Of a DNA stretch of 59,665 nt, positions 1,687 to 59,618 are shown piece after piece; positions within the stretch are counted from its first letter, which is position 1; every line of letters begins with the position of its first letter. The DNA is from an uncultured Nitrososphaerota archaeon. Lineage in GTDB: Archaea > Thermoproteota > Methanomethylicia > Nezhaarchaeales > WYZ-LMO8. The DNA lies in assembly GCA_964586135.1 (NCBI GenBank), contig CAZPGS010000002.1, positions 1 to 59,665 on the forward strand, read 5' to 3'. A program made the position numbers and the translations under genes. A model generated the notes under the pieces. The model worked only from the letters and a program-made list of their open reading frames with translations. It made no database searches and was not told the DNA's origin.

Positions 1687-1965
1687 CTACCCCCCACCAG
1701 CCGGCGGAAATATGGAGATGGTAGAGCCGTCCCTGAGCTTAGCCCTCAACCCTCCGAGAAACATGCAATCTCTCCCGTCCACCAAGACTTTCAAATAACT
1801 CTTCAAGTCCTCTCCTTCAAAAATCAGCTCCTTGACCTCGGGCTTCTGATCGACTAGCGACTCTAGCAGTTGCCCCACAGTAGAGTCTTCAGCAAGTTCC
1901 ATCTCGATACTCTTCCAGCCCATGACATTTCTCAAAAAGCCGTAGACTTCTACCTTGACTTTCAA
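1687..1965 (-). CDS. MoaD/ThiS-family ubiquitin-like small protein (SAMP-like)
   Basis: 92 aa with beta-grasp-like sequence and a C-terminal ...SIFPPAGGG ending typical of the MoaD/ThiS/SAMP family. It is divergently transcribed from the tungstopterin-type AOR gene. Confidence 0.7.
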   Translation of the reverse strand: MKVKVEVYGFLRNVMGWKSIEMELAEDSTVGQLLESLVDQKPEVKELIFEGEDLKSYLKVLVDGRDCMFLGGLRAKLRDGSTISIFPPAGGG

Positions 1966-1995
1966 GAGGGCCCCTTCAACTATCTCCTTAAAAAC

Positions 1996-2004
1996 TTTAA
2001 AAAA
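1996..2004 (+). promoter_or_regulatory. TATA-like box upstream of the AOR::HPS gene
   Basis: TTTAAAAAA lies about 32 nt upstream of the TTG at 2036. That start gives an N-terminus (M)GGYVGRMLEVDL that aligns with AOR-family N-termini. Confidence 0.35.
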
Positions 2005-2035
2005 TTTGAGGGAGAAAAAGCCTTGGGGACCAAGG

Positions 2036-4534
2036 TTGGGCGGCTACGTCGGAAGGATGCTTGAAGTGGACTTAACGAGGGACAATGTAGCGGTCATAGA
2101 CTTAGATTGGGACGTGGCCATGAAGTTCGTGGGTGGTAGGGGCTATGCGGTAAAGCTGCTCTTCGATCTATTGAGGCCGGGTATTGATCCGTTAAGCGAG
2201 GACAACATCTTAATATTCATGACCGGGCCCCTAACCGGTACTAGGGCTCCAGCATCAGGTAGATTCGTGGTATCTTCTAAGTCACCTCTAACGAACACCG
2301 TCTTCGATTCTCACTGCGGAGGGGCTTGGGGTCCTGAGTTGAAGAGAGCCGGCTTCGATGGAGTAATAATCAAGGGGAAGAGCCCTAGACCGGTGTACTT
2401 GTTCGTGAGCCACGGCAAGGCCGAGATACGTGACGCGAGCAGAATGTGGGGCCTCGAAACGGACGCCACAACAGATGCTATTAAGAGAGATATAGGGCTT
2501 GACGACGTCAAGGTCTGTTGTATAGGTCCCGCTGGCGAAAACCGAGTAAAGTTTGCCTGCATAATAAGCGAGAGGCATAGAGCTGCTGGAAGAGGCGGCC
2601 TAGGTGCGGTAATGGGCTCCAAAAACCTGAAGGCTATAGCGGTCAAGGGCACGGGCGAGGTCACGGTCGCAAACCCCAAGGCGTTTAACGAGGAAGCCAA
2701 GAAGGCTCTGGAGGTCTTAAGGGGGAACCCGATAACAGGAGACAGCCTAGGGCGCTACGGGACGGCGTTCCTCGTGCACTTGATGAACAAAGCAGGCGTA
2801 TTGCCATCGTACAACTTCACGCGGGGCTTCTTTGAGGGGGCCGAGGACGTGTGCGGTGAGAGGATCACGGAGACCATGCTCGTGAAGAGAACGGCCTGCT
2901 ACGGCTGTCCGATAGCCTGTGCTCGCCTGATAAAGTACAAGATCGGCGAAGAAGTTGTGTCCTCTGGGCCAGAGTACGAAAGCGTATGGGCCTTAGGGCC
3001 GAATTGCGGAATATGGAATGTAAACGTCATAGTACGAGCAAACGATCTGTGCAATAAGTTGGGCTTGGACACGATTTCGATGGGTAACGTGATAGGGTTC
3101 CTCATGGAGTGCCACGAGAGGGGGCTTTTAAAAGGGCTTGGCGAGGTCGACCTAAAGCTCAATTTCGGCAACTCCGATGCGCTGTTGAAATTAATTGTGG
3201 ACACGGCCTACAAGAGGGGGCTCGGTGCGCTGGCGAGCGAGGGGGTCAGCAGAATAGCGAAGACCCTTGGCGCAGAGGACATGGCCGCTCACGTGAAGGG
3301 GCTCGAGCTACCAGCTTACGATCCGCGAGGGGCCAAGGGGATGGCACTAGCCTACGCCACCTCCAACAGGGGGGGTTGCCACTTGAGGGCTTACGTCGTG
3401 ATGAGCGAGATACTCGGAGTCCCTAGATACATAGACCCCTTATCGTATGAAGGCAAGGCCGAGCTGGTCAAGAGGCTCCAAGATGTCTCGGCGGTGATAG
3501 ACTCGCTTGTGATGTGTAAGTACACCATGTTGGCGCTTTTCTCAACGCTAGCTTACGAGCCGACGCACTACGCAAGGCTCCTGACGACGGCAACGGGCTT
3601 CTACGTCGATGAAGAAGAGTTTTACAAGGTGGGGGAGAGGATTTACAACCTCGAGAGGCTGTTCAACATCAGAGAGGGATTCGGTAGGCCTCACGACGTC
3701 CTACCCCTAAGGTTCTTGAGGGAGCCGCTAAGAGAGGGCCCTGCTAAGGGAGAGGTCGTTGACTTAACGAGACTCCTCGACGCCTACTACATGGTCAGGG
3801 GTTGGAACTACGACGGAGTACCGATGGACAAAAAGCTTCGCCAACTAGGCCTGGAGCCCTTGTACACAGGGCCTAAACTTCAAGTAGCAATAGACGAGAG
3901 GTACTTAAAGGACGGCTTGAGCATAGCAGAGGCCTGCTACAGAGGAGGGGCCGAGATCCTCGAAGTTGGGACGCCCCTCATAAAGTCCGCTGGCCTAGAG
4001 GCCGTGAGAGAGTTTAGGAGGAGGTTCCCCTACGCTACAATAGTCGCTGATTTGAAGACCTTCGATACCGGCTGGTTAGAGGTCGAATTGGCGGCCGAAT
4101 CGGGGGCCGACGTAGTGACAGTGCTGGGGGCAACCGACGACTATACGATCAAAGACGCCGTAGGCGCAGCTAGGAAGTACAATGTCAAAATAATGTGCGA
4201 CCTGATAAATGTTCCAGACCCCCTCACTAGGGCCAAAGAGGTGGAGAGGCTTGGATGCGATATAATATGCGTTCACATGGGCATAAGCGTGCAAATGAGG
4301 GAGAGAGACGTGACCAAGAAGATGGCCATGCTCAAGGAGATAGTCAAGAGCGTCAAGGTCCCTGTGGCTGTAGCGGGCGGCGTAAGGCTTGAGCACGTGG
4401 ACGACTTGGTAAGGTGCGGTTGCAAGATAATAATCGTGGGCTCGGCGATAACTAGGTCTTCCAGCCCCGAAGAGGCCACGAGAAGGTTTATAGCGACAAT
4501 ACGAGGGGCTTACGAGGGGCTCAAGAGCTCTTAG
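2036..4534 (+). CDS. Fusion protein: aldehyde/formaldehyde ferredoxin oxidoreductase (AOR family) N-terminal part plus 3-hexulose-6-phosphate synthase (HPS) C-terminal domain
   Basis: Single uninterrupted frame. The N-terminal roughly 610 aa carry AOR-family hallmarks (GGYVGRMLEVDL, FVGGRGYAVKLL, 4Fe-4S ligands in TACYGCPIAC, and the C-terminal YYMVRGWNYDGVP). From about nt 3875 the sequence KLQVAIDE...ILEVGTPLIK...VADLKTFDTG...GADVVTVLG...ICVHMGISVQ...AVAGGV...IIVGSAIT matches HPS/OMP-decarboxylase-fold HxlA-type enzymes. The longest ORF starts at 1955, but TTG 2036 (or ATG 2057) fits homologs better. Confidence 0.85.
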   Translation: MGGYVGRMLEVDLTRDNVAVIDLDWDVAMKFVGGRGYAVKLLFDLLRPGIDPLSEDNILIFMTGPLTGTRAPASGRFVVSSKSPLTNTVFDSHCGGAWGPELKRAGFDGVIIKGKSPRPVYLFVSHGKAEIRDASRMWGLETDATTDAIKRDIGLDDVKVCCIGPAGENRVKFACIISERHRAAGRGGLGAVMGSKNLKAIAVKGTGEVTVANPKAFNEEAKKALEVLRGNPITGDSLGRYGTAFLVHLMNKAGVLPSYNFTRGFFEGAEDVCGERITETMLVKRTACYGCPIACARLIKYKIGEEVVSSGPEYESVWALGPNCGIWNVNVIVRANDLCNKLGLDTISMGNVIGFLMECHERGLLKGLGEVDLKLNFGNSDALLKLIVDTAYKRGLGALASEGVSRIAKTLGAEDMAAHVKGLELPAYDPRGAKGMALAYATSNRGGCHLRAYVVMSEILGVPRYIDPLSYEGKAELVKRLQDVSAVIDSLVMCKYTMLALFSTLAYEPTHYARLLTTATGFYVDEEEFYKVGERIYNLERLFNIREGFGRPHDVLPLRFLREPLREGPAKGEVVDLTRLLDAYYMVRGWNYDGVPMDKKLRQLGLEPLYTGPKLQVAIDERYLKDGLSIAEACYRGGAEILEVGTPLIKSAGLEAVREFRRRFPYATIVADLKTFDTGWLEVELAAESGADVVTVLGATDDYTIKDAVGAARKYNVKIMCDLINVPDPLTRAKEVERLGCDIICVHMGISVQMRERDVTKKMAMLKEIVKSVKVPVAVAGGVRLEHVDDLVRCGCKIIIVGSAITRSSSPEEATRRFIATIRGAYEGLKSS

Positions 4535-6224
4535 CCGAGCTATCCGAGGCAGTCGACCTCTTGAGCCTGTGCTCCAGGCATGCCTTAACGAAGCCGTAGA
4601 ACAGAGGCGAAGGCCTATTTGGCCTCGACTTGAACTCTGGATGGGCCTGCGTCGCCACGAAGAATGGATGATCCTTAAGCTCGATGAATTCGACCCTTCG
4701 ATTATCAACGCTATACCCCGAGAAGACCATGCCGTAGCTCTGGAGGAGCGACCAGTAAGCAGGGTTTATCTCGTATCGGTGTCTGTGCCTCTCAAATATT
4801 ATCGGCCTGCCATAAAGCTCGTAGACTTTAGTTCCGGGCTCGAGGACCGTGGCTTGGGCTCCCAACCTCATCGTCCCGCCGACCTCTTTGACGTGATATT
4901 GCTCCGGCAACAAGTCCACGACGGGGTGACTAGTGGATGGATCCAGCTCTGTTGTGTTTGCGTCCTTAAGGCCCACGACGTTCCTCACGAACTCCACAAC
5001 AGCTAATTGCATACCAAAGCATATACCCAAAAAGGGGATCTTGTTCTCCCTTGCATACTTAATCACCTTCATCTTACCTTCAGCGCCGCGTGCTCCGAAG
5101 CCCGGCAGGACTACTATGCCGTCGCACGAGCTCAAAATCTCTTGGTACTCTCTTGGTATCTCCTCGCCTTGGTCGAGCGGTGTAGCCTCAAGCCAGGTCA
5201 TGTTAACCTTAGTCTCGAGGGCAGCCCCTGCATGCTTTAAGGCCTCTATTATGCTAATGTAGGAGTCCTTCAACCTCGTGTACTTGCCGCACATGCAAAC
5301 ATTGACTTCATGCTTGTGGAACTTGTGCCTCCTCACCACTTCCTTCCAAGAAGACCAGTCCGCCTTGGCGCCATCCAACATCAATCGCCTACAGATGTAG
5401 TCACCCATCCCTTGTTCGTCTAGTATTATTGGTAGCTCGTATATGCACTCGATGTTGTAAGAAGTGAAGACGGCTTCCTCACGGACGTTGCTGTAAAGCG
5501 CTATCTTCTTCTTAGATTCCTCGTCTAGTGGGTACTTACATCGTGCTACTATTACATCGGGCTGTATGCCAATACGCCTGAGCTCTTGCACGCTATGCTG
5601 GAGGGGCTTCGTCTTGAATTCTCCGGTCACCTCAAGTATTGGCACGAGGGCCACGTGTACGAAGAGGGTGTTCGAAGGGCTCTCCTCAAGCCTCATCTGC
5701 CTGATGGCCTCGAGAAATGGGAGGCCCTCTATGTCCCCCGTAGTGCCCCCACACTCAACAAGGGTCACGTCTGCATGGCTTCTCTGAGCTACAGATCGTA
5801 TTCTCCTCTTCACCTCATCAGTTACGTGCGGTATTATTTGCACGCACTTGCCGAGGTACTTGCCCTTTCTCTCGGCCTCTATGACTGCCATGTAGACCTG
5901 TCCCGTCGTGATGTTGTTGTCCTTTGAGAGGTCTATGTCGAGAAAACGCTCGTAGTGGCCAAGATCTAGGTCTACTTCACCTCCATCTTCTGTCACAAAG
6001 ACCTCGCCATGCATGTATACCCGGCTCTAAGCACGAGGCTTAGAGCCTATGGGTTCATGGTTCCTGCATCGACGTTTATGTCTACCCGGCCCACGGGCCT
6101 ATGGGTCTATCTTTATCGCCGTTACCGAGAAGCCCTTGACTCGTAACATCTTACCTATCGATGCTGTCACGGCTCCTTTGCCTACGCCCGACAGGACACC
6201 TCCCGTAATGAATATGTACTTCAT
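4521..6224 (-). CDS. pyrG: CTP synthase, interrupted by two predicted micro-introns
   Basis: Exons on the minus strand are 6224..6101, 6081..6049 and 6016..4521, totalling 1653 nt (550 aa). Exon 1 encodes [41 protein letters not shown], exon 2 (Y)[10 protein letters not shown](Y), and exon 3 [24 protein letters not shown]... through the glutamine amidotransferase domain (GICFGMQ, HRHRYE). The continuous ORF 4521..6014 alone lacks the universal N-terminal P-loop region. Confidence 0.9.
6017..6048 (-). other. predicted BHB micro-intron 2 of pyrG (32 nt)
   Basis: RNA sequence is A-GGCUCUAAG-CCUCGUG-CUUAGAGCC-GGGU-AU. A 9-bp hairpin is flanked by the 4-bp helix ACCC(exon)/GGGU(intron) and two 3-nt bulges AUA/AUA. 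The outer helix is CAUG/CAUG. Cutting after the second nt of each bulge gives the AAC CCA UAC AUG CAU junction (NPYMH). Confidence 0.75.
6082..6100 (-). other. predicted BHB micro-intron 1 of pyrG (19 nt)
   Basis: RNA sequence is A-GGCC-CGUG-GGCC-GGGU-AG. A GC hairpin is flanked by the 4-bp helix ACCC/GGGU and the 3-nt bulges AUA and AGA. Cutting after the second bulge nt gives the GAC CCA UAC AUA AAC junction (DPYIN). The outer exon-exon helix is weak (relaxed HBh' type). Confidence 0.7.
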
Positions 6225-6323
6225 AATCACTCACACAAAGTGCGTCTGACCTCTGAGGTGAGATAAACCTTGCGCGACATTTGCCTTAACTCATCGCAGC
6301 GAAGACGTAAGTCTGGGCTACGT

Positions 6324-10637: not shown

Positions 10638-11720
10638 GTGAGAGCCTCGCTGTGTATAATATACGACGACATCTTCATGAAGCACAATCCCGACCCATAC
10701 CATCCCGAGAGCCCTCGAAGGCTCGCGGAGATAATCAAAGAGCTCAACGGAAGAGGGGTTCTCGCCAAAGTTAAAGTGGAGAGGGCTGTTAAGGCCTCGC
10801 TAAGTGACGTGGTGAGGGTCCATGATGAGGACTACGTCAAGTACGTAGAGAGGGCCATTGCAAGCGGCGCGAGATACGTAGATCCCGACACTCAAGTGTC
10901 AAAGGAGAGCTTCGAGGTGGCCCTTTACGCTGCGGGCTCCAGCATATACGGTTGCGAAAAGGTCTTGAACGATGACTTCGATGTCTGCTTCGTGTTAGAG
11001 AGACCTCCAGGGCATCACGCGGGTAAGGCTGGTGCTGCCTTGGGGGCCCCAACACTAGGCTTCTGCCTCTTCAACAACGTCGCCATAGCAACGAAGCATT
11101 TGATCGAAGAGCGCGGACTGAAAAGGATAGCCATATTCGACTTCGACTGCCATCACGGTAACGGCACGCAAGAAATATTCTATCGAGACGGGTCGGTCCT
11201 TTACATAAGCACTCACCAAGATGGTAGGACGGCTTACCCAGGCACGGGATTTGTTGACGAAGTGGGAGAGGGGGAGGGAAGAGGCTACAACGTCAACGTC
11301 CCACTTCCACCCCTTACAGGCGATGACGTCTACGAAGAGGTCTTAGAGAAAGTTGTGGGTAGACTGCTAAAAGAATACAGGCCAGAAGTCTTGTTGTTGT
11401 CAGCAGGGTTCGACGCGCATAAAGACGATCCGTTGACGTCCATGGGCCTCTCGCTGAACTCGTACGTCAAGATAGCCGAGCTCGTCAAGGGGCTCATGAA
11501 CGAAGGGATCACGAAAAAAGCCGTCTTCGTACTCGAAGGGGGCTACGGCCCAGGGCTTGCATGGGGGGTTTACGACATAATAGCATACTTCATTGGTATG
11601 CCGTTGATAGAGGAGGGCAAGACGACCTCTTCTGAAAGAGTGAAGAGGGAAGGCTTAAAAGTGGTGAGCGAGGTCTACGAGAAGGTTTTGAGGCCCTACT
11701 GGGGGATTGAGGCTTGTTAA
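10638..11720 (+). CDS. histone deacetylase-family protein (AcuC/acetylpolyamine amidohydrolase-like)
   Basis: GTG start. HPESPRRL, ERPPGHHAG, FDFDCHHGNGTQ and LEGGY motifs of the class I/II HDAC superfamily. Confidence 0.85.
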   Translation: MRASLCIIYDDIFMKHNPDPYHPESPRRLAEIIKELNGRGVLAKVKVERAVKASLSDVVRVHDEDYVKYVERAIASGARYVDPDTQVSKESFEVALYAAGSSIYGCEKVLNDDFDVCFVLERPPGHHAGKAGAALGAPTLGFCLFNNVAIATKHLIEERGLKRIAIFDFDCHHGNGTQEIFYRDGSVLYISTHQDGRTAYPGTGFVDEVGEGEGRGYNVNVPLPPLTGDDVYEEVLEKVVGRLLKEYRPEVLLLSAGFDAHKDDPLTSMGLSLNSYVKIAELVKGLMNEGITKKAVFVLEGGYGPGLAWGVYDIIAYFIGMPLIEEGKTTSSERVKREGLKVVSEVYEKVLRPYWGIEAC

Positions 11721-12729
11721 CGGTGGTCGTCGGAGGCTTCTTTGGAGACGAGGGAAAGGCCTCGGCCCCCTAGAAGGGAAGATATGCGCCTATCTCTCAT
11801 TAAAAGATGACGTAAAGGTCGCCGTTAGGACTGGCTCGGTAAACGCCGGCCACACGGTGGTCTACAACAATAAGGAGTACAAACTAAGAATCGTGCCCTG
11901 TGGGTTCGTAAACCCACGTGCTACGCTGTGTATAGCCGCAGGGGCCAACGTGAGGATCGACGTCTTGATGAAGGAGCTGGAGCTCACGAACACCAAGGGC
12001 CGGTTGAAAATAGATCCTCAAGCATCCATAATCGAAGACGAGCACGTAAAGAGGGAGAGGGAAGATCAGTTCCTCATCTCCAAGATAGGCTCGACGGGGC
12101 AGGGGGTCGGGGCAGCAGTAGTCGACAGGGTCAGGAGAGTGGCTAGGCTCGCTCGCGATGTGAAGGAGCTAAGCGAGTACTTGGACGACGTGTCCATGAT
12201 CGTCTGGAGGGCATTGCAACAAGGCCAAAACGTGCTACTCGAGGGCACGCAGGGATACTACCTGTCCCTATACCACGGAACATATCCCTATGTCACGAGC
12301 CGGGACACGACGGCCTCAGCCGTCTGTAGCGAGGTGGGCATAGGCCCCAAAATAGTTGACGAGGTCGTTGTAGTCTTCAAGACTTACGTAACAAGAGTTG
12401 GAGGGGGGCCTCTACCAGGCGAGCTCCCGGAGGAGGAGGCAGAGAAGCTGGGGCTGGTTGAGGTAGCAACGGTGACTGGGAGGAGGAGAAGGGCCGCTCC
12501 CTTCAACTTTGAGCTGGCGAAGAGGGCCGTCATAGCCAACAGCGCAACTCAAGTAGCTCTGACGAGAATTGACGTGCTGTTTCCATCAGCTTCAAGGGTC
12601 AGGAAGTACGATGAGTTGCCGCGTGAGGCGAAGGAATTCGTTGGAAAAGTAGAAGATGAGCTAAAGGTCCCCGTGACCATACTCAGCACAGGCCCTGACG
12701 TCTTTGACACCATAGACCTGAGAGACTAA
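11714..12729 (+). CDS. purA: adenylosuccinate synthetase, interrupted by a predicted 17-nt micro-intron
   Basis: Exons 11714..11756 and 11774..12729 (999 nt). Exon 1 (TTG 11714 or GTG 11723) encodes (M)LTVVVGGFFGDEGK and exon 2 continues GKICAYLS...SVNAGHTV...TGQGVGAAVVDR...GTQG. The spliced junction restores the PurA P-loop GDEGKGK. The longest-ORF start (TTG 11707) yields an out-of-frame N-terminus, MRLVNGGRRRLLWRRGKGLGPLE. Confidence 0.9.
11757..11773 (+). other. predicted BHB micro-intron of purA (17 nt)
   Basis: RNA sequence is A-GGCC-UC-GGCC-CCCU-AG. A GC hairpin is flanked by the 4-bp helix AGGG(exon, 11751..11754)/CCCU(intron, 11768..11771) and the 3-nt bulges AAA and AGA. Cutting after the second nt of each bulge gives GAG GGA AAA GGG AAG (EGKGK). 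The insert contains an in-frame TAG. Confidence 0.7.
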
Positions 12730-18599: not shown

Positions 18600-19985
18600 G
18601 AAAGTACAGACATAGCTACAGCGAGAAAGTCATCGACTTTGTCAAAGAGGTCATGAGAGAATATGGGCCCCGACTCGCTGAAAGCGAGGCCGAGTTGAAG
18701 GCTGGCGAGCACGTATATAAGCTAATGCCCAAGTTTTGCGATGAGGTCCAGAAGGATTGATTCACTTCAAGGCCGAGAGGGTTTACGGGCTACATATGGG
18801 TCGTATTCTTCCTTTGCCTCCTCGGTACAGCACTGTATTTCATGGGCTTTTGGTTTGTAATATTTGTCCTCACCCTCTTCGAATTATCGAGATTTGTCCT
18901 TCACCAATGCCTACACTATGAGGTTGTTGACCTCCTATTCCCGAGGGCCCAAGAGTTCCACATCGTTGATAGGACCTTTCCGTCGGGAACTCCGAAGAAT
19001 AAAATCCTACTCTCCGCCTGCTACGATTCTCCATACGAGTTCCCACTATTGAGTAGGCTGAGGATGAGGCCGCCACTCCTTATACTATCAACAGTAGCGA
19101 TGGTCGTTATCACGGGTTTCTTAGGACTGTTAAGGTACTTTTACGATGTCGATGCGATTCAAAGGCCAATGCTGATCGTAAGCGCGTGCCTTCTCTTCGT
19201 GCTTGCTGCGCTTCGAGGTCCAACAAGGTATTCCTGGCTCAAACGACGATCTCGCTGGCGTTGGAGTTGTTCTTGAAGCTGGGAGATATCTCAGCACGAA
19301 TAGGTTAAAGAATACCGAGGTTTGGATCGTCGTGTTTGCCGGAGAAGGGCACATGCGAGGTTCGAAGAGGTTTGTCAAAAAATACTTCGATAAGCTCAAG
19401 GACTCGATTCTGTTTAACTTTAAGCGCCCCTCTCGTGAGTACTTCTTAGTTGCCACCGAAGAAAGGCTGTTCTTCGCCAAACACCCTCAAAGGGCCGTAG
19501 AGATAGCAAAGAGGGCTTGTGAGAGGGTCGGCGCTAACTTCAAGGTCGGTCCCTTGCCGTTTGCGGGTGGTGATGCGGCGAACTTTTTGAGGAAAGGCCT
19601 TCATGCTGTGACGATGTTTGGCTTACTGTTTGTCCCTAAATGCTCATCCTCATTAGTCTATTTCTATTCGTCGCATCTAGGGATTTCCGCCTCGCGCGCT
19701 ATTAGCGCGGTTCGTGGGCGTTCGAGCCCAACGGCACGGGACTCCCACCTACCTCCGCCCCGCCCAGGCTCGGAGCGCCGCTCCCATCGCCTGAGCGGGC
19801 TCTGAGCAATAAACGGTATCAGAGCTTCAAACTCAACATCTAAACATCAACTACGAAACAGCCCAGACGGTGCTCCATATTGCTGGCACACGCTTGAAGA
19901 TATGCCAGAAAAGCTAAAACCGGCCTCTATCACGAAGGCCGTAGAAATAGCGATCGAGATGGCAAAGTTAGTAGATGAGTCGTAA
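18600..19985 (+). pseudogene. M28-family (Iap-like) membrane-associated metallopeptidase, disrupted
   Basis: Recognisable segments are EKVIDFVKEVMREYGPRLAESEAELKAGEHVY, ILLSACYDS, IPGSNDDLAGVGVVLEAGRYL, GGDAANFLRKGLHAV and WHTLEDMPEKL...VDES*. Lesions are: no start codon in frame, an in-frame TGA at 18758..18760, a frameshift between about 19180 and 19215, and an in-frame TGA at 19803..19805 inside a GC-rich insert. Confidence 0.7.
19681..19807 (+). other. GC-rich structured insert inside the M28 pseudogene (tRNA-like T-arm/hairpins)
   Basis: This stretch is compositionally distinct (very GC-rich) within a roughly 45% GC gene. Hairpins are CGCGC-GCUAUUA-GCGCG (19693..19709), UGGGC-GUUCGA-GCCCA (19715..19730, T-arm-like GUUCGA loop), CAGGC..GGAGC-GCC-GCUCC..GCCUG, and a long-range GAGCCC/GGGCUC pairing. 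Confidence 0.4.
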
Positions 19986-35944: not shown

Positions 35945-36054
35945 GACAGGGGATATATCTTCAATAACCCAATATAAATGTTTCTTGAGCGGATCATATG
36001 TTTTTTAGGGCGGGTTAGACTGCTGTCCTTGGAGCTTGAGGGCTCCTCCTCTGG

Positions 36055-41587: not shown

Positions 41588-41663
41588 GGGGCCGTAGGCT
41601 AGCCTGGTAGACTGCGAGGCTTGGGCCCTCGTGACCCAGGTTCAAATCCTGGCGGCCCCACCA
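41588..41663 (+). tRNA. tRNA-Pro (anticodon UGG), CCA encoded
   Basis: Acceptor GGGGCCG/CGGCCCC, anticodon arm CGAGG-CUUGGGC-CCUCG (UGG), T-arm CCAGG-UUCAAAU-CCUGG, discriminator A then CCA. The D-stem (GGCU/GACU) is weak. No intron is present. Confidence 0.85.
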
Positions 41664-48430: not shown

Positions 48431-50110
48431 TTAGACCCAGCCCATCGCCGCTCCCGTGAACAGCTCAAGCACGACGATCAGGCAACACATGGCGGCGTCC
48501 CTGAAGCCCTCCCCGAGCTTGAAGGAGGATATCTTCCCGGCTATCAGGCCGCATATGACCGCGGAGGTCGCTACCCCCAACATCACTTGGCTCGCTATGT
48601 AGGGCATGTCCTCCGGGGTTATCATTATCGCGAAGGGCATCGAGGCGACCGCTTGCTGCGTCATCGTCATCGCGCCCAGCCTCGCGAGCATGGGCATGAC
48701 GAAGCCCATGAGCGCTATCGCTATCCCGCCCGCCAGCGCGACCCCGAACATGATCATCCACCGGTTGAGGGCGATGTTGCTCCTGTACTCGCTCACGGAG
48801 TCCACGTGCTCCCTGAAGGCCTCAGCGAGGCCGTCGAACGCCTCAGCCCTCGCTCCCAGCTCCTCCAGGTCCCTCATGAGGTCTAAGGCGAGGAGGGCCG
48901 GCTTCGGGAGCAGGTGGGCTGTGTCCTTCAGCGCCCTGTCGAAGCCGCTCAGCCTGGCCTTGTTCACCAAGAGCTTCAGGAACCTATCGAAGAGCCTCCC
49001 GTAAACCCTCGTGGACAGGTACTCCAAGGCCTTGAAGGGGCTGGAGCCCCTTCTCACCTCGTCCGCCAGATCCCTTAGGAAGGCCGGTAGTTTCTCTATC
49101 ACTTCCGTCAGGGCCCTGTCGTGCCTCTTCCACTCCATGTAGGCCGGCACGGCAAAGCCCGCGCACGCCGCGACGACTGCGAGGGCCGAGGCGAACCTTA
49201 TCATCAGAGGTAGCCTGAGGAGGCCCAAACTCACGCACGCTCCCAAGGTCACCCCCAAGGGGAGCCACTTCATCAAGGGCCTGGTGTACACGGGCGAGTA
49301 CTGCTGAGGGGCCACGTCGGGGCACATCGCGTCGGCGATCACTATGAGCATCCCACCCATCGTTAGGAAGACGACCGAGAAGAAGAGGATCATCATCCCG
49401 ATCTGTTGCGAGGCTAGGAGCATGAGCATGGTGTAGACGCTCACGGGCAGGATGCAGAAGATGGAGGTCACGGCGGTTGCCAGAGTGCTCATCCTGTTGC
49501 TCATCGCCTTGAAGGAGGCCTTTAGGGCGTTTAGGGCCTGCACGTGGAGGTCCCTAAACGCCTGGACTGGGGAGCCACCCGTCCTCTCCAAAAAGGCCAT
49601 CGTCGTGAGTAGTTGCCTCCACACCCCGCCTATCGGCCTGTCGGCCTCCTTGGAGAAGACGGTGGGGAGGGGCTCGAGCGTTATGGAGGCGTCCCTGAAC
49701 AGGCGCTTGAGCTCGAAGCTCGCATGGGGGAGGGTGAGCTCCTTCTCCCTCAGGCGATTGGCTATCTGGATCGTCGGGAGGCCGGCCTGCGCGTAGGCGT
49801 CCGCCATCAGGACGGCCCGGTAACTCTCCTCCGCCAGCCTCTTCAGGTGCGACTTGTAGTCCCTGTACGGCTTCGTGTAGAGGAAGAAGACGAGAGTCGA
49901 GAGCGCGAGGATAATCAGGATGGCCTGGAGCGGAGGGTCGGGTGGAGATAGCTGGGGCGCCGAGCGCTTCACGAGGAGGAGCATCGCGAGGGGAAGGGCC
50001 GGGACGAAGGAGTAGGCGAGGGCCTTCTTGAACCTCCTGTAGAGGGCCTCCGGGTTCTGGAAGAGGTAGTAGCGGCAGGCCTCCTCGAAGAGCCTCCTCA
50101 CGTGAGGCAA
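48431..50110 (-). CDS. FlaJ/TadC/PilC-like polytopic membrane platform protein of a type IV filament system
   Basis: 559 aa with at least 7 hydrophobic segments and two soluble helical regions, as in T2SS-F/FlaJ proteins. Its start lies 4 nt after the stop of the secretion ATPase, the canonical ATPase-platform pairing. Confidence 0.7.
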   Translation of the reverse strand: MPHVRRLFEEACRYYLFQNPEALYRRFKKALAYSFVPALPLAMLLLVKRSAPQLSPPDPPLQAILIILALSTLVFFLYTKPYRDYKSHLKRLAEESYRAVLMADAYAQAGLPTIQIANRLREKELTLPHASFELKRLFRDASITLEPLPTVFSKEADRPIGGVWRQLLTTMAFLERTGGSPVQAFRDLHVQALNALKASFKAMSNRMSTLATAVTSIFCILPVSVYTMLMLLASQQIGMMILFFSVVFLTMGGMLIVIADAMCPDVAPQQYSPVYTRPLMKWLPLGVTLGACVSLGLLRLPLMIRFASALAVVAACAGFAVPAYMEWKRHDRALTEVIEKLPAFLRDLADEVRRGSSPFKALEYLSTRVYGRLFDRFLKLLVNKARLSGFDRALKDTAHLLPKPALLALDLMRDLEELGARAEAFDGLAEAFREHVDSVSEYRSNIALNRWMIMFGVALAGGIAIALMGFVMPMLARLGAMTMTQQAVASMPFAIMITPEDMPYIASQVMLGVATSAVICGLIAGKISSFKLGEGFRDAAMCCLIVVLELFTGAAMGWV

Positions 50111-50114
50111 GGCC

Positions 50115-51746
50115 TTAAAAAGAGGGGCGGGCCTCCTGGCAACGCGCTCCTCGGGCCGGCTGCGCGGGCGGCGGGGCCAGCAGGCGCTCCGTCTTCGTGA
50201 ACTCCTCTAGCCTCTCTATGAGGTCCTTCGGGTCGCGGTAAAACTCCGTGAGGGCCCTGAGCCACTCGCCCGGCTCCGCCAGCTTCTCCCGGAGCCCCTT
50301 GACCGCGACCAGGCTCAAGAACCTTGCCCGCAATCTCCAGGAGGCCTCGACCTCGGCCTCACCCTTCAGGCCCCTCTCTGCCACGGCCCTGAGCACGGGC
50401 CTTGGGTCCTCCATCACCACCCTGTCCTCCTCCGGCTTGTACCTCGCCACGGCCACGCACTTGGGCCTGAAGTCCTCGTCCAGCCCCTCCACGAAGTATA
50501 TCGCCTTGACCCTCCTCAGCCTCTGGGTCTTTGTCTGGAAGAGGCCCATGTGCGCTAGGAGCCTCAGCTCCGCCGCGAGGGCCCTCTCCATGCCCAAGTC
50601 CTTGAGCCTGCCGAAGAGCGCCTCGGGAGACTCGGCGTGTATCGAGGCGAGGCCCCCCTGCCCTATCCCGAGGGCCTGCCCGAAGACCCTCGCCTCCTCC
50701 CCCCTTATCTCATTTATAGTTATGTAGTCGCAGTCGTACCTCAGCAGGTGCTTCACGAGGTCCATCATGGTTATCGCGCCCTCGCCGGCTATCCCGAACC
50801 CGGTTCTCTCGTACATGAGCACCTTGCCCGGGTGTGGGACGTCCATCTCGGGTATGTCGCATGCTATCCCTATCCTAGCCTCAGGGGGGAGGAGCATCGC
50901 GACTGCGTTTATCAGGGTCGTCTTCCCGCTACCAAGCCCGCCGAAGCTCACCAAAGCCAGCTTGTGCTCCGAGGCTATCCAGAGGAGGGCCATGGCCTCG
51001 GGGCTTATCACGCCGGTCGCCAGGTAGAGCGGGGGCGTCCAAGGCCTCTTCGGGAACTTCCTTATGACGAAGCTGGAGCTCCTCGCGACCTCCCCCTCCC
51101 CCAAGGTCAGGGCCGCCCTATCCCCCGTCGGCAACACCACGCTCACCTGGGGCCTGAAGCGCGATATCGACCTCCCTCCCCTGTAGGCCAGCAGCCTGAC
51201 CATCTCGTCCAGTTGCTCCTTCGTGAGGTGGACGTTGGTGGGCATCCTCCCGAACCTCCTGTGGGTAACGACGACCGGCCTGTCGGGCGAGTCACAGGCT
51301 ATCCCCTCCAGCTCGTCGTCCATGACCAAGGGGTGTATCGCCTTATAGCCCACGACCTCCCTCTGGATCAAGTAGCGGAGGGCCCTAGTCTCGTAGTCCT
51401 CCTCTCCCAGCCCGAGGGCCTCGAAGACCCTCGCCAGCCCGCCCTCCACGTCCTCCGGCCTCACTATGTACAGCAGGACCTCGTCTATCAGCCTCTGGGC
51501 CTTGTAGAGGGTCTCGTCGTCCACCTTTGGGTCCTCGACTACGTACTTGTAGCCCTCCCTCCCCTCTACTATCGCGACCTTGGCGAAGCCGTCCGGGGAG
51601 TAGAGGGCGCGCTCCACGCCCTCGTAGTCCTGCTGCCTCGGCCTCGTGAGGACTATTCTCGGCCTGAAGCCGGGCGGTAGCTTCGGGGGGGCCTTCTCGG
51701 CCCCTGAGGATCCCGAGGGCCTGCGCCCGAAGGGGTTCAGCCTCAT
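50115..51746 (-). CDS. FlaI/VirB11-type type II/IV secretion ATPase (pilus/archaellum assembly ATPase)
   Basis: 543 aa. Walker A SFGGLGSGKTTLINAV, Asp/Walker B region CDYITINEIRGEEA, His box GGLASIHAESPEALFGRL, and an N-terminal domain with the YKYVVEDP motif as in FlaI/UpsE/AapE-type proteins. Confidence 0.85.
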   Translation of the reverse strand: MRLNPFGRRPSGSSGAEKAPPKLPPGFRPRIVLTRPRQQDYEGVERALYSPDGFAKVAIVEGREGYKYVVEDPKVDDETLYKAQRLIDEVLLYIVRPEDVEGGLARVFEALGLGEEDYETRALRYLIQREVVGYKAIHPLVMDDELEGIACDSPDRPVVVTHRRFGRMPTNVHLTKEQLDEMVRLLAYRGGRSISRFRPQVSVVLPTGDRAALTLGEGEVARSSSFVIRKFPKRPWTPPLYLATGVISPEAMALLWIASEHKLALVSFGGLGSGKTTLINAVAMLLPPEARIGIACDIPEMDVPHPGKVLMYERTGFGIAGEGAITMMDLVKHLLRYDCDYITINEIRGEEARVFGQALGIGQGGLASIHAESPEALFGRLKDLGMERALAAELRLLAHMGLFQTKTQRLRRVKAIYFVEGLDEDFRPKCVAVARYKPEEDRVVMEDPRPVLRAVAERGLKGEAEVEASWRLRARFLSLVAVKGLREKLAEPGEWLRALTEFYRDPKDLIERLEEFTKTERLLAPPPAQPARGARCQEARPSF

Positions 51747-58752: not shown

Positions 58753-59433
58753 GTGGGGCTGTGCTTAAAAGGGGGCTGAATGTCAAGGGGAAGACTTAGA
58801 GCGAGGTCGCGGCCTGCGCTTGATGGTTATGAAGTGATGTTCGTCGCCCGACCTTCGACGGGAGGACGTGGAGAAAGCCCCACTGATTATGGTCGGCATC
58901 GTCACCATAAGCTCGGCGCTAGCTTAGCGCTAGCTAAAAATGGCGACTCCCGTAGGAAGTTGCATGGCGATTGCCTTCGCCGAGCAACTAGCCAATTGAA
59001 GAGGCCGTCCCTTTAGCTATTAGATAAGAACGTGGAGTCACGCTATAGAGTAGTAGGCTTGTCAGAGATCGAAGAGGCTTGAAGGCGGAGGCCTTGAAAT
59101 AGGGGTCTCAGAGAGTGATCACCGTGTCGGTTGCGCAACACACAACCGAGATGGCTCTATCGAGCGATCCTTAACGCAGTTCAGAGCTTAAGGCCCTTGA
59201 TGCTACAAGGGCCCGAGAAAGTTGACGGCCACACGTCCTTCGTCATGATCTCTGGCTCTCATGTTGTGCGCTTGAATTAGGTCTTGCCACTCAAGGTTGA
59301 GAGGAGACATTGTTGAAGTAGCATTTAAGCACGTTTATACTTTTGGACCGCCTATCGTGGTGGACTTAGCCCTGACGAGACACAACCATCAAGTCTCAGT
59401 AAAAATGTGATGCGAGGTGAAACGGATATGCAA

Positions 59434-59506
59434 AGCCCCGGGCGGGATTCGAACCCGCGACTTGCGGCTTACAAGGCCGCCGCCATAACCGCTAGGCAAC
59501 CGGGGC
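59434..59506 (-). tRNA. tRNA-Thr (anticodon UGU)
   Basis: The reverse complement is GCCCCGG-UU-GCCU-AGCGGUUA-UGGC-G-GCGGC-CUUGUAA-GCCGC-AAGUC-GCGGG-UUCGAAU-CCCGC-CCGGGGC-U. It forms a cloverleaf of 73 nt with no intron and no encoded CCA. Confidence 0.9.
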
Positions 59507-59618
59507 TTAAAGTACCAATTTCGGGAGACCATAAAAGCGTTAATGTCCTCAGCGATCTCAGCCTCTCGAAGCAAGCTTTTATTTCGGGCTTTGCTCTTTT
59601 TCTAATCGCTTAATCAGA

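Follow-up and report, generated by a model that had tools for sequence, protein, structure and literature searches.

Candidate bulge-helix-bulge micro-introns in the CTP synthase and adenylosuccinate synthetase genes of Nezhaarchaeales and other uncultured Thermoproteota

The tRNA genes of archaea reportedly carry bulge-helix-bulge (BHB) introns at non-canonical positions and with several introns in one gene, as Marck and Grosjean are said to have set out in 2003, and intron gain is likewise reported from the Thermoproteales. Among archaeal messenger RNAs the closest described case is the intron of the cbf5 pre-mRNA, reportedly the subject of work by Watanabe in 2002. Here we analyse a stretch of 59,665 nucleotides (nt) from an uncultured archaeon of the Nezhaarchaeales (contig CAZPGS010000002.1 of assembly GCA_964586135.1), referred to below as the window, in which pyrG, the essential gene for CTP synthase, is split by two short inserts and purA, the gene for adenylosuccinate synthetase (AdSS), is split by one. 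The comparisons described below strongly support the view that the pyrG inserts are BHB introns of the cbf5 type within a pre-mRNA.

The cbf5 intron is found in the Desulfurococcales and Sulfolobales, and lengths of 33–39 bp are cited for it (PMC2738675). Most cbf5 introns have a relaxed motif, and their cuts are predicted to fall between the second and third residues of the bulge (Yokobori 2009, PMC2738675). Beyond tRNA and rRNA this was the only mRNA intron reported until an intron in the 5′ untranslated region (UTR) of HVO_1309 was added (Schwarz et al. 2020, PMC7714728). The original prediction made for this locus held that cbf5 is the only well-established BHB intron of an archaeal protein gene; on the evidence of that paper the statement stands, with the 5′-UTR intron as an addition to it. 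A structural paper on the splicing endonuclease EndA from 2025 cites only cbf5 papers for mRNA (PMC12397907), a review of non-canonical splicing from 2026 does not mention an archaeal mRNA intron (PMC13149111), the papers on Culexarchaeia and Methanonezhaarchaeia do not mention introns, and the introns of the Asgard paper are in tRNA genes. Work on archaeal tRNA BHB introns is cited in PMC11291895. In the openly searchable literature we found no paper that combines ‘bulge-helix-bulge’ with ‘CTP synthase’, no paper that combines adenylosuccinate synthetase with splicing-endonuclease terms, and no report of coding-region BHB introns beyond cbf5.

The inserts in pyrG and purA resemble the cbf5 intron in several ways. 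They are short and lie in a coding region, they have a relaxed BHB motif with the same cut rule, they interrupt the codon of a catalytic or invariant motif, and their presence or absence is specific to lineages. The differences lie in the host proteins, which are CTP synthase and AdSS instead of an RNA-modification enzyme, and in the host lineages, which are Nezhaarchaeales, Culexarchaeia and others. Unlike cbf5, pyrG has two candidate introns in one gene, only 33 nt apart, and the same short exon target is used twice in that gene and again in different genes across lineages. The splicing of cbf5 has been shown by complementary DNA and by in vitro cleavage, whereas that of pyrG and purA is deduced from sequence.

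The comparison can be extended to three other types of intron. The inserts match the canonical 37/38 tRNA intron in that their 3′ part pairs with the nucleotides that end the exon and in that the 5′ cut would lie in a bulge beside the intron hairpin; tRNA BHB introns begin at sizes of 11 nt, and there can be several in one gene, as in pyrG. Unlike tRNA introns, the inserts described here have an mRNA as host, where the reading frame and in-frame stops matter and where no tRNA body aids recognition. The HVO_1309 intron of Haloferax volcanii is also an EndA substrate in an mRNA, confirmed both in vivo and in vitro (PMC7714728), but it lies in an untranslated leader, has a canonical motif, and belongs to a euryarchaeon with a homodimeric enzyme. 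Finally, HAC1/XBP1 splicing (by IRE1 with RtcB or a tRNA ligase) is alike in that it relies on a protein endonuclease and a tRNA ligase to take out a small coding intron. There the removal of the intron shifts the reading frame and serves as a regulatory switch; the system differs in being eukaryotic, in using IRE1 as the endonuclease and in having paired stem-loops rather than a BHB.

In the window pyrG lies on the minus strand and is interrupted by inserts of 19 nt (6100..6082) and 32 nt (6048..6017). Its parts are the following:

6260..6271, minus strand: TATA-like box AAGGTTTATCTC, located some 40 nt before the pyrG ATG and likely the single promoter for all three exons
6101..6224, minus strand: pyrG exon 1, 124 nt, encoding M1 to P41 and the first base of the Tyr42 codon; contains the ATP-binding P-loop
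6082..6100, minus strand: pyrG insert 1, 19 nt, AGGCCCGTGGGCCGGGTAG = AGGCCCGUGGGCCGGGUAG, a predicted BHB micro-intron
6049..6081, minus strand: pyrG exon 2, 33 nt, which completes Tyr42, encodes 10 residues and starts Tyr53
6017..6048, minus strand: pyrG insert 2, 32 nt, AGGCTCTAAGCCTCGTGCTTAGAGCCGGGTAT = AGGCUCUAAGCCUCGUGCUUAGAGCCGGGUAU, a predicted BHB micro-intron
4521..6016, minus strand: pyrG exon 3, 1496 nt including the stop, encoding the rest of CTP synthase; called as a 497-amino-acid (aa) protein by open reading frame (ORF) callers

The original prediction was that the N-terminal region of PyrG is present upstream of the long ORF but broken twice, and that deletion of both inserts gives a 550-aa protein colinear with known PyrG. 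Both parts of this are borne out at the coordinates given above. The ATG at 6224 opens 41 residues and then meets a TAG, the segment 6081..6049 continues in a second frame until it too meets a TAG, and the long ORF occupies 6014..4521 and begins MHGEVFV. Deletion of both inserts leaves a coding sequence (CDS) of 1653 nt for 550 aa, and this product aligns end to end with the CTP synthase of S. solfataricus, 3nva, with an E value of 9e-215. On the NCBIfam PyrG equivalog it scores 789.6 bits, where the cut-off is 308. The upstream exons supply the P-loop and the DPYINVD segment, the latter conserved across the aligned CTP synthases; the stretch of 27 residues over both junctions is identical to 3nva and ungapped, and the match of the spliced translation to solved CTP synthase structures is free of gaps. 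The TATA-like box at 6260..6271, probably the promoter of pyrG, precedes exon 1 in the same form or as a one-base variant in all related loci compared, and no promoter-like element comparable to it was found between the pyrG exons. Because an in-frame UAG stands at the 5′ junction of every pyrG insert, unspliced RNA cannot yield the enzyme.

Comparison of orthologous pyrG loci found both inserts in 11 distinct Nezhaarchaeales relatives, and in dozens of independent contigs from independent NCBI, JGI, ENA and Logan assemblies, and found neither insert in about 65 related lineages. The six PyrG clusters closest to the window protein have 81–90% identity to it, are 492–502 aa long and lack the N-terminus, and those that carry names are Candidatus Nezhaarchaeales; all members listed for these clusters (JGI, ENA, Logan, NCBI) are at most 504 aa. 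In the loci for which upstream DNA was available, the broken gene has a shared neighbourhood, consisting of TFE, pyrG, an aldehyde:ferredoxin oxidoreductase fusion and ThiS, and the gene calls mostly show the N-terminal piece as a separate ORF of 41 aa that matches Pfam CTP_synth_N. Five further loci with the inserts came from a scan of one genome per species, and one of the five has the same sequence as L003 (L numbers denote the loci compared). The distance from the GGVLS to the HGEVF motif could be measured in 93 of 95 pyrG loci, and an excess of 50–60 nt occurs only in a subclade of the Nezhaarchaeales. The approximately 65 Thermoproteota loci without extra nucleotides include another Nezhaarchaeales genome (L012/L023, 70% identity). 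The PyrG of L015 (JGI Ga0105163_1000634) is listed as 523 aa and is actually intact, the gene caller having taken an internal start, so a short database length alone is no sign of an insert. The entry P0010 was considered as a truncated protein and rejected, being intact with a mis-called start.

Gene callers report only the truncated ORF of 492–504 aa and the ORF of 41 aa, which is what would be expected if pyrG were a decaying pseudogene with junk insertions and CTP came from a second pyrG or from salvage. The evidence from the relatives makes this extremely unlikely. In all 11 loci the three exons are open, in the correct order and free of further disruptions, and excision at the bulge positions gives a PyrG of 545–555 aa in every insert-bearing locus. 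The ratio of nonsynonymous to synonymous substitution rates (dN/dS) of the spliced CDS is 0.035–0.059 over 550 codons for pairs with unsaturated dS, with synonymous sites near saturation. The structure of the inserts is conserved with compensatory changes, as described below. In the best 80 PyrG-encoding loci of species-representative genomes, which extend to about 61% identity, no insert-bearing assembly occurs more than once.

The length of the inserts differs between relatives. Insert 1 is 19, 20, 21, 22 or 27 nt long and insert 2 is 30, 31, 32 or 33 nt long, and the lengths modulo 3 in the 11 loci are 1, 2, 1, 1, 0, 1, 1, 2, 2, 0 and 0 for insert 1 and 2, 1, 1, 1, 0, 0, 0, 1, 2, 0 and 2 for insert 2. 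A fixed recoding event thus cannot stand in for excision, because orthologues differ in this value. The stop at the 5′ junction is placed exactly (CCA U|AG) in all 11 loci, being composed of the last exon base and the first two bases of the insert. The take-off site of phage T4 gene 60 is a stop codon followed by a hairpin, and the pyrG inserts resemble it in having a stop right after the last sense codon and then a hairpin. It could therefore be proposed that the inserts stay in the mRNA and are passed by programmed bypassing, or by a combination of frameshifts and read-through of stops. We consider this very unlikely. No CCN landing codon that matches the take-off CCA is present before the next exon, and a hop would lose the invariant Tyr codon that is split as U|AC. 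Frameshifting is contradicted by the differences in length modulo 3 between orthologues, and read-through would add residues to a segment that is contiguous in every aligned CTP synthase.

The predicted RNA structure also points to excision. In the minimum-free-energy (MFE) fold of 6130..5990 the ACCC/GGGU helix, an AUA bulge and a GC hairpin are present at both inserts; the fold has a z score of −2.85, and none of 200 shuffled sequences folds as well. At both inserts the exon nucleotides ACCC pair with GGGU. Insert 1 has AUA and AGA as its bulges and GGCC-CGUG-GGCC as its hairpin; insert 2 has AUA in each bulge and a hairpin with a 10-bp stem, GGCUCUAAGC/GCUUAGAGCC. When folded in isolation both pyrG inserts keep a BHB-like MFE structure at 37 and 80 °C, and that of insert 2 adds an outer CAUG/CAUG helix, which is 93% paired and has one extra unpaired A opposite the 3′ bulge. 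A central 4-bp helix with two 3-nt bulges on opposite strands was found at the pyrG and purA inserts, and an intron-internal hairpin (h′) is present at all inserts. The earlier claim that the two inserts fold in the same way, with an ACCC/GGGU helix, A-rich bulges and a GC hairpin, agrees with the MFE folds. It had also been claimed that the junctions fall after the second bulge nucleotide, and this holds as well: the positions required by the alignment are AU|A...AG|A and AU|A...AU|A, and the rule applies at all three inserts of the window and in every relative. The same rule has been published for cbf5 (PMC2738675). As an A follows both the donor and the acceptor, cuts 1 nt later at both sites would give an identical mRNA.

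Across the 11 sequences, aligned with MAFFT, 96.2% of the structure cells are paired, compared with 15–43% when the 3′ partners are slid by 1–3 columns. Three pairs are changed on both sides, with A-U in place of G-C and C-G in place of U-A among the examples, and all three lie in hairpins of the introns; the covariation score was reached by none of 500 shuffles. The compensatory change in the hairpin of insert 1 converts GGCC to GACCC/GGGUC, and in insert 2 two hairpin pairs are changed on both sides, while the three G-C pairs of each central helix are invariant. All 11 insert-bearing loci have the exon sequence ACCCAU|A unchanged at the two sites; of the 66 insert-less loci only 7 and 8, respectively, have it there, although the encoded amino acids (D/N-P-Y) are the same. 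Among the insert-bearing relatives, exon 2 varies at its third codon positions outside GAC CCA U and AAC CCA U.

This freezing of synonymous bases bears on a further alternative, in which the pieces of 41, 10 and 497 aa are translated separately and come together non-covalently as an active enzyme. Small archaeal genomes are known to contain split genes with products that assemble, and exon 1 of pyrG has a start and a stop codon of its own. Exon 2, however, has no in-frame start codon, and both Tyr codons are cut internally, so that the invariant Tyr42 and Tyr53 would be lost. The conserved RNA structure and the frozen exon bases would also be left unexplained, and we regard separate translation as highly improbable.

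BHB-like inserts that interrupt pyrG are not confined to the Nezhaarchaeales. A second group among the 93 measured pyrG loci has 22–28 extra nt and includes Candidatus Culexmicrobium (Culexarchaeia). The feature found in this group is the following:

About 50 nt after the pyrG start, in L013/L028, L016, L025, L027, L031, L032 and L034: a single insert of 22–28 nt in the P-loop

This insert falls within the P-loop codons GUG GGG AA|A ... AG|A GGY GUN and has the same architecture as the inserts of the window, the exon nucleotides GGGG being paired with CCCU or CCCC and the bulges being AAA and ARA. The sequence of the hairpin differs in nearly every species, and 96.1% of the structure is paired, with four pairs changed on both sides and a score reached by none of 500 shuffles. 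One of these inserts has a length of 24 nt, a multiple of 3, yet it carries an in-frame TAG. The PyrG proteins of this group are annotated as truncated CTP synthases of 510–515 aa.

A third insert in the window interrupts purA, on the plus strand and 5.5 kb from the pyrG inserts:

11714..11756, plus strand: purA exon 1, with TTG 11714 or GTG 11723 as the probable start, encoding (M)LTVVVGGFFGDEG and the first base of a Lys codon
11757..11773, plus strand: purA insert, 17 nt, AGGCCUCGGCCCCCUAG, a predicted BHB micro-intron in the P-loop codons
11774..12729, plus strand: purA exon 2, encoding the rest of AdSS; the spliced product has 332 aa

The ORF of purA is called as 11707..12729 and has an aberrant N-terminus. 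The DNA encodes GGFFGDEGK in one frame, then a stop, and then GKICAYLS in another frame; without the 17 nt the P-loop again reads GDEGKGK, which is also its sequence in the solved AdSS structure 2d7u. The spliced protein of 332 aa is colinear with this P. horikoshii enzyme from residue 3 (E 1e-101), and the predicted junction peptides of the spliced product are VVVGGFFGDEGK / GKICAYLSLK. The central helix of the purA insert is formed by exon AGGG and insert CCCU, its bulges read AAA and AGA, and GGC-CUCG-GCC makes up the hairpin. Structurally this is the weakest of the three cases in the window, although its coding evidence is strong. The same insert, with 17–18 nt, is present in the metagenome loci L097–L104, and in L104 it is 18 nt long with an in-frame TAG. 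Four loci from more distant lineages carry other forms: L166 has 28 nt with a 9-bp stem, L168 and L171 have 18 nt with the stem flipped from GGC/GCC to GCC/GGC, in frame but with a TAA, and L176 has approximately 31 nt. The MFE structure is the BHB-like fold in L166, L168 and L176. Folds were made per sequence for purA; MAFFT puts L168 out of register, and the stems of the Nezhaarchaeales are invariant. The P-loop is intact in most other loci, 54 of which were scored by the P-loop motif.

The specificity of the motif was assessed by scanning for a signature that combines a central helix of three G-C pairs with bulges of the form A-N-A and a compact hairpin. There are 58 matches in 804 kb, comprising the window and related loci, and 50 of these lie at three verified classes of site, while the remaining 8 equal the 8 matches obtained in the shuffled 804 kb. 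Chance would give about 0.6 matches per window; exactly 3 are observed, each at the position and with the length that restores a reading frame. A relaxed scan for A-N-A bulges gave 20 matches where 10.5 were expected, and the frame was rescued only by the three with GC-rich helices. A generic scan for BHB motifs with ORF rescue that allowed any bulge gave approximately 80 matches in the window against 152 in a reversed control and was uninformative, and an earlier permissive BHB scan was discarded for the same lack of specificity. AT-rich matches at 35992 (+), 35979 (−) and 42616 (−) were set aside, lying in promoter-like or non-coding spacers and probably being due to chance. The last of these is within a region at approximately 41.7–43.0 kb that is AT-rich (G+C about 0.47) and has only short ORFs without family matches and no Rfam match.

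The exon sequences around the inserts fall into two types. Both pyrG inserts of the window share the context ACCCAU^ACAU (encoding P-Y-I and P-Y-M), and the purA insert shares the context RGGGAA^ARG (G-K-G codons) with the pyrG insert of the Culexarchaeia. RGGGAA^ARG is occupied in the purA of Nezhaarchaeales and of at least three other lineages. In the Culexarchaeia-like L016 it is the P-loop of pyrG that is occupied and that of purA that is intact, and in the lineage of the window this is reversed. All inserts are built on a common minimal plan, in which an A comes first, a GC-clamped hairpin next, then 4 nt with complementarity to the exon upstream, and A-R last. As the same type of site is occupied in different genes of different lineages, the pattern suggests repeated gain or mobility, or alternatively survival only where the exon bases are immobile. 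A single mobile family of minimal BHB introns that has repeatedly colonised the targets ACCCAU^ACAU and RGGGAA^ARG is a tentative proposal that we think somewhat doubtful. If it is true there would be active intron gain into archaeal protein genes, for example by reverse splicing and then reverse transcription. A weaker reading, and pure speculation, is that splicing could couple the expression of AdSS and CTP synthase to the GTP pool, because AdSS consumes GTP, GTP activates CTP synthase and ligation by RtcB needs GTP.

On the observed anatomy, conservation and covariation, the restoration of the frame in all relatives and the purifying selection, we consider it very likely that the inserts of pyrG and purA are removed from RNA by the EndA/RtcB pathway. 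Each gene would be transcribed as one pre-mRNA, in which the central 4-bp helix would arise between the last four exon nucleotides (ACCC in pyrG and AGGG in purA) and GGGU/C or CCCU/C near the insert's 3′ end. The GC-clamped hairpin of the insert would close a 3-nt A-rich bulge on the 5′ strand, and a second A-rich stretch of 3 nt would follow the helix on the 3′ strand. EndA would then cut after the second nucleotide of each bulge and RtcB would join the exons, so that pyrG regains its Tyr codons, split as U|AC or U|AU, and purA its Lys codon, split as A|AA. Every computable prediction of the original BHB reading has held, with the refinements that the motif is relaxed and not canonical and that its occurrence is wider than pyrG.

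Several points weigh against splicing by this route. In terms of structure the motif is relaxed, insert 1 and the P-loop inserts having no outer exon-exon helix, and the central helix has A.C instead of A-U as its outermost pair in 1 of 11 relatives at insert 1 and in 4 of 11 at insert 2. In the purA of the window the BHB-like fold has −10.3 kcal/mol, 2.8 above the MFE of −13.1, and the z scores for the folds of the short purA forms are unremarkable. Relaxed motifs need an EndA of broad specificity, of the (alpha-beta)2 or epsilon2 type (PMC5829648); the EndA search covered the window and the 804 kb of loci only, and with a motif whose consensus matches genuine PDB EndA entries it found no EndA-like ORF there. 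In a collection of 5.8 billion proteins no full-length or junction-spanning protein of this clade was found, the search for a near-identical junction-spanning protein having been made with the full-length query, with members of the six PyrG clusters and with the N-terminal 105 aa. The databases searched also gave no transcript evidence for the spliced form, and the sequences are all metagenome-assembled. For comparison, no introns were detected in the tRNA genes of the window and related loci.

The relaxed motif could alternatively mean that the inserts are removed from RNA by other machinery than EndA and RtcB, either another nuclease and ligase or self-cleavage. Rfam has no covering model, which would be compatible with such a route. 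We judge it to be unlikely, as the geometry is exactly EndA-like, with a 4-bp helix, bulges of 3 nt and cuts after the second bulge nucleotide (PMC2738675). At 17–33 nt the inserts are also too small for self-splicing introns of group I or group II, which were rejected as candidates on the grounds that they need a core of hundreds of nucleotides and that Rfam gave no match in the pyrG insert region at the gathering threshold.

The remainder of the window has several other features. A gene at 1955..4534 (+) encodes a fusion of 859 aa between an aldehyde:ferredoxin oxidoreductase (AFOR_N/AFOR_C) and an OMP-decarboxylase-family domain; it converges on pyrG with an overlap of 14 nt and is kept beside pyrG in related Nezhaarchaeales loci. 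At 18842..19805 (+) a Peptidase_M28 gene is present as two overlapping ORFs in different frames, and the region upstream of it at 18.3–18.9 kb has no clear coding frame. This break was considered as a further BHB insert and rejected, being a plain frameshift (pseudogene or sequencing error) without a BHB-like motif. From approximately 44.5 to 59.4 kb the G+C content rises from about 0.50 to 0.60–0.63. This block encodes a type IV pilus-like system, with a T2SSE ATPase at 50115..51746 and T2SSF at 48431..50110, and large surface proteins and several small, pilin-like ones are also encoded there. The block is flanked by tRNA-Pro (41588..41663) and tRNA-Thr (59433..59507); it may have been acquired as an island or may stem from a chimeric join in the assembly.

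Should splicing be confirmed, the number of archaeal protein genes with tRNA-type introns would rise from one (cbf5) to at least three, and these would include the first gene with two introns and the first case in core nucleotide metabolism. The predicted introns span several uncultured lineages of Thermoproteota, the host here being from a hot spring. In public annotations these genes appear as a ‘CTP synthase’ of 492–504 aa without a P-loop and as an AdSS with a garbled P-loop. Annotation of the genes as truncated can therefore lead to errors when the metabolism of these lineages is reconstructed or their completeness estimated, and archaeal gene finders need an intron model. A culture of Methanonezhaarchaeia now exists (PMC12700198), which makes experiments feasible if it belongs to the insert-bearing clade. 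The identical target contexts of 9–10 nt across genes and lineages make the gain of introns in archaeal mRNA directly testable.

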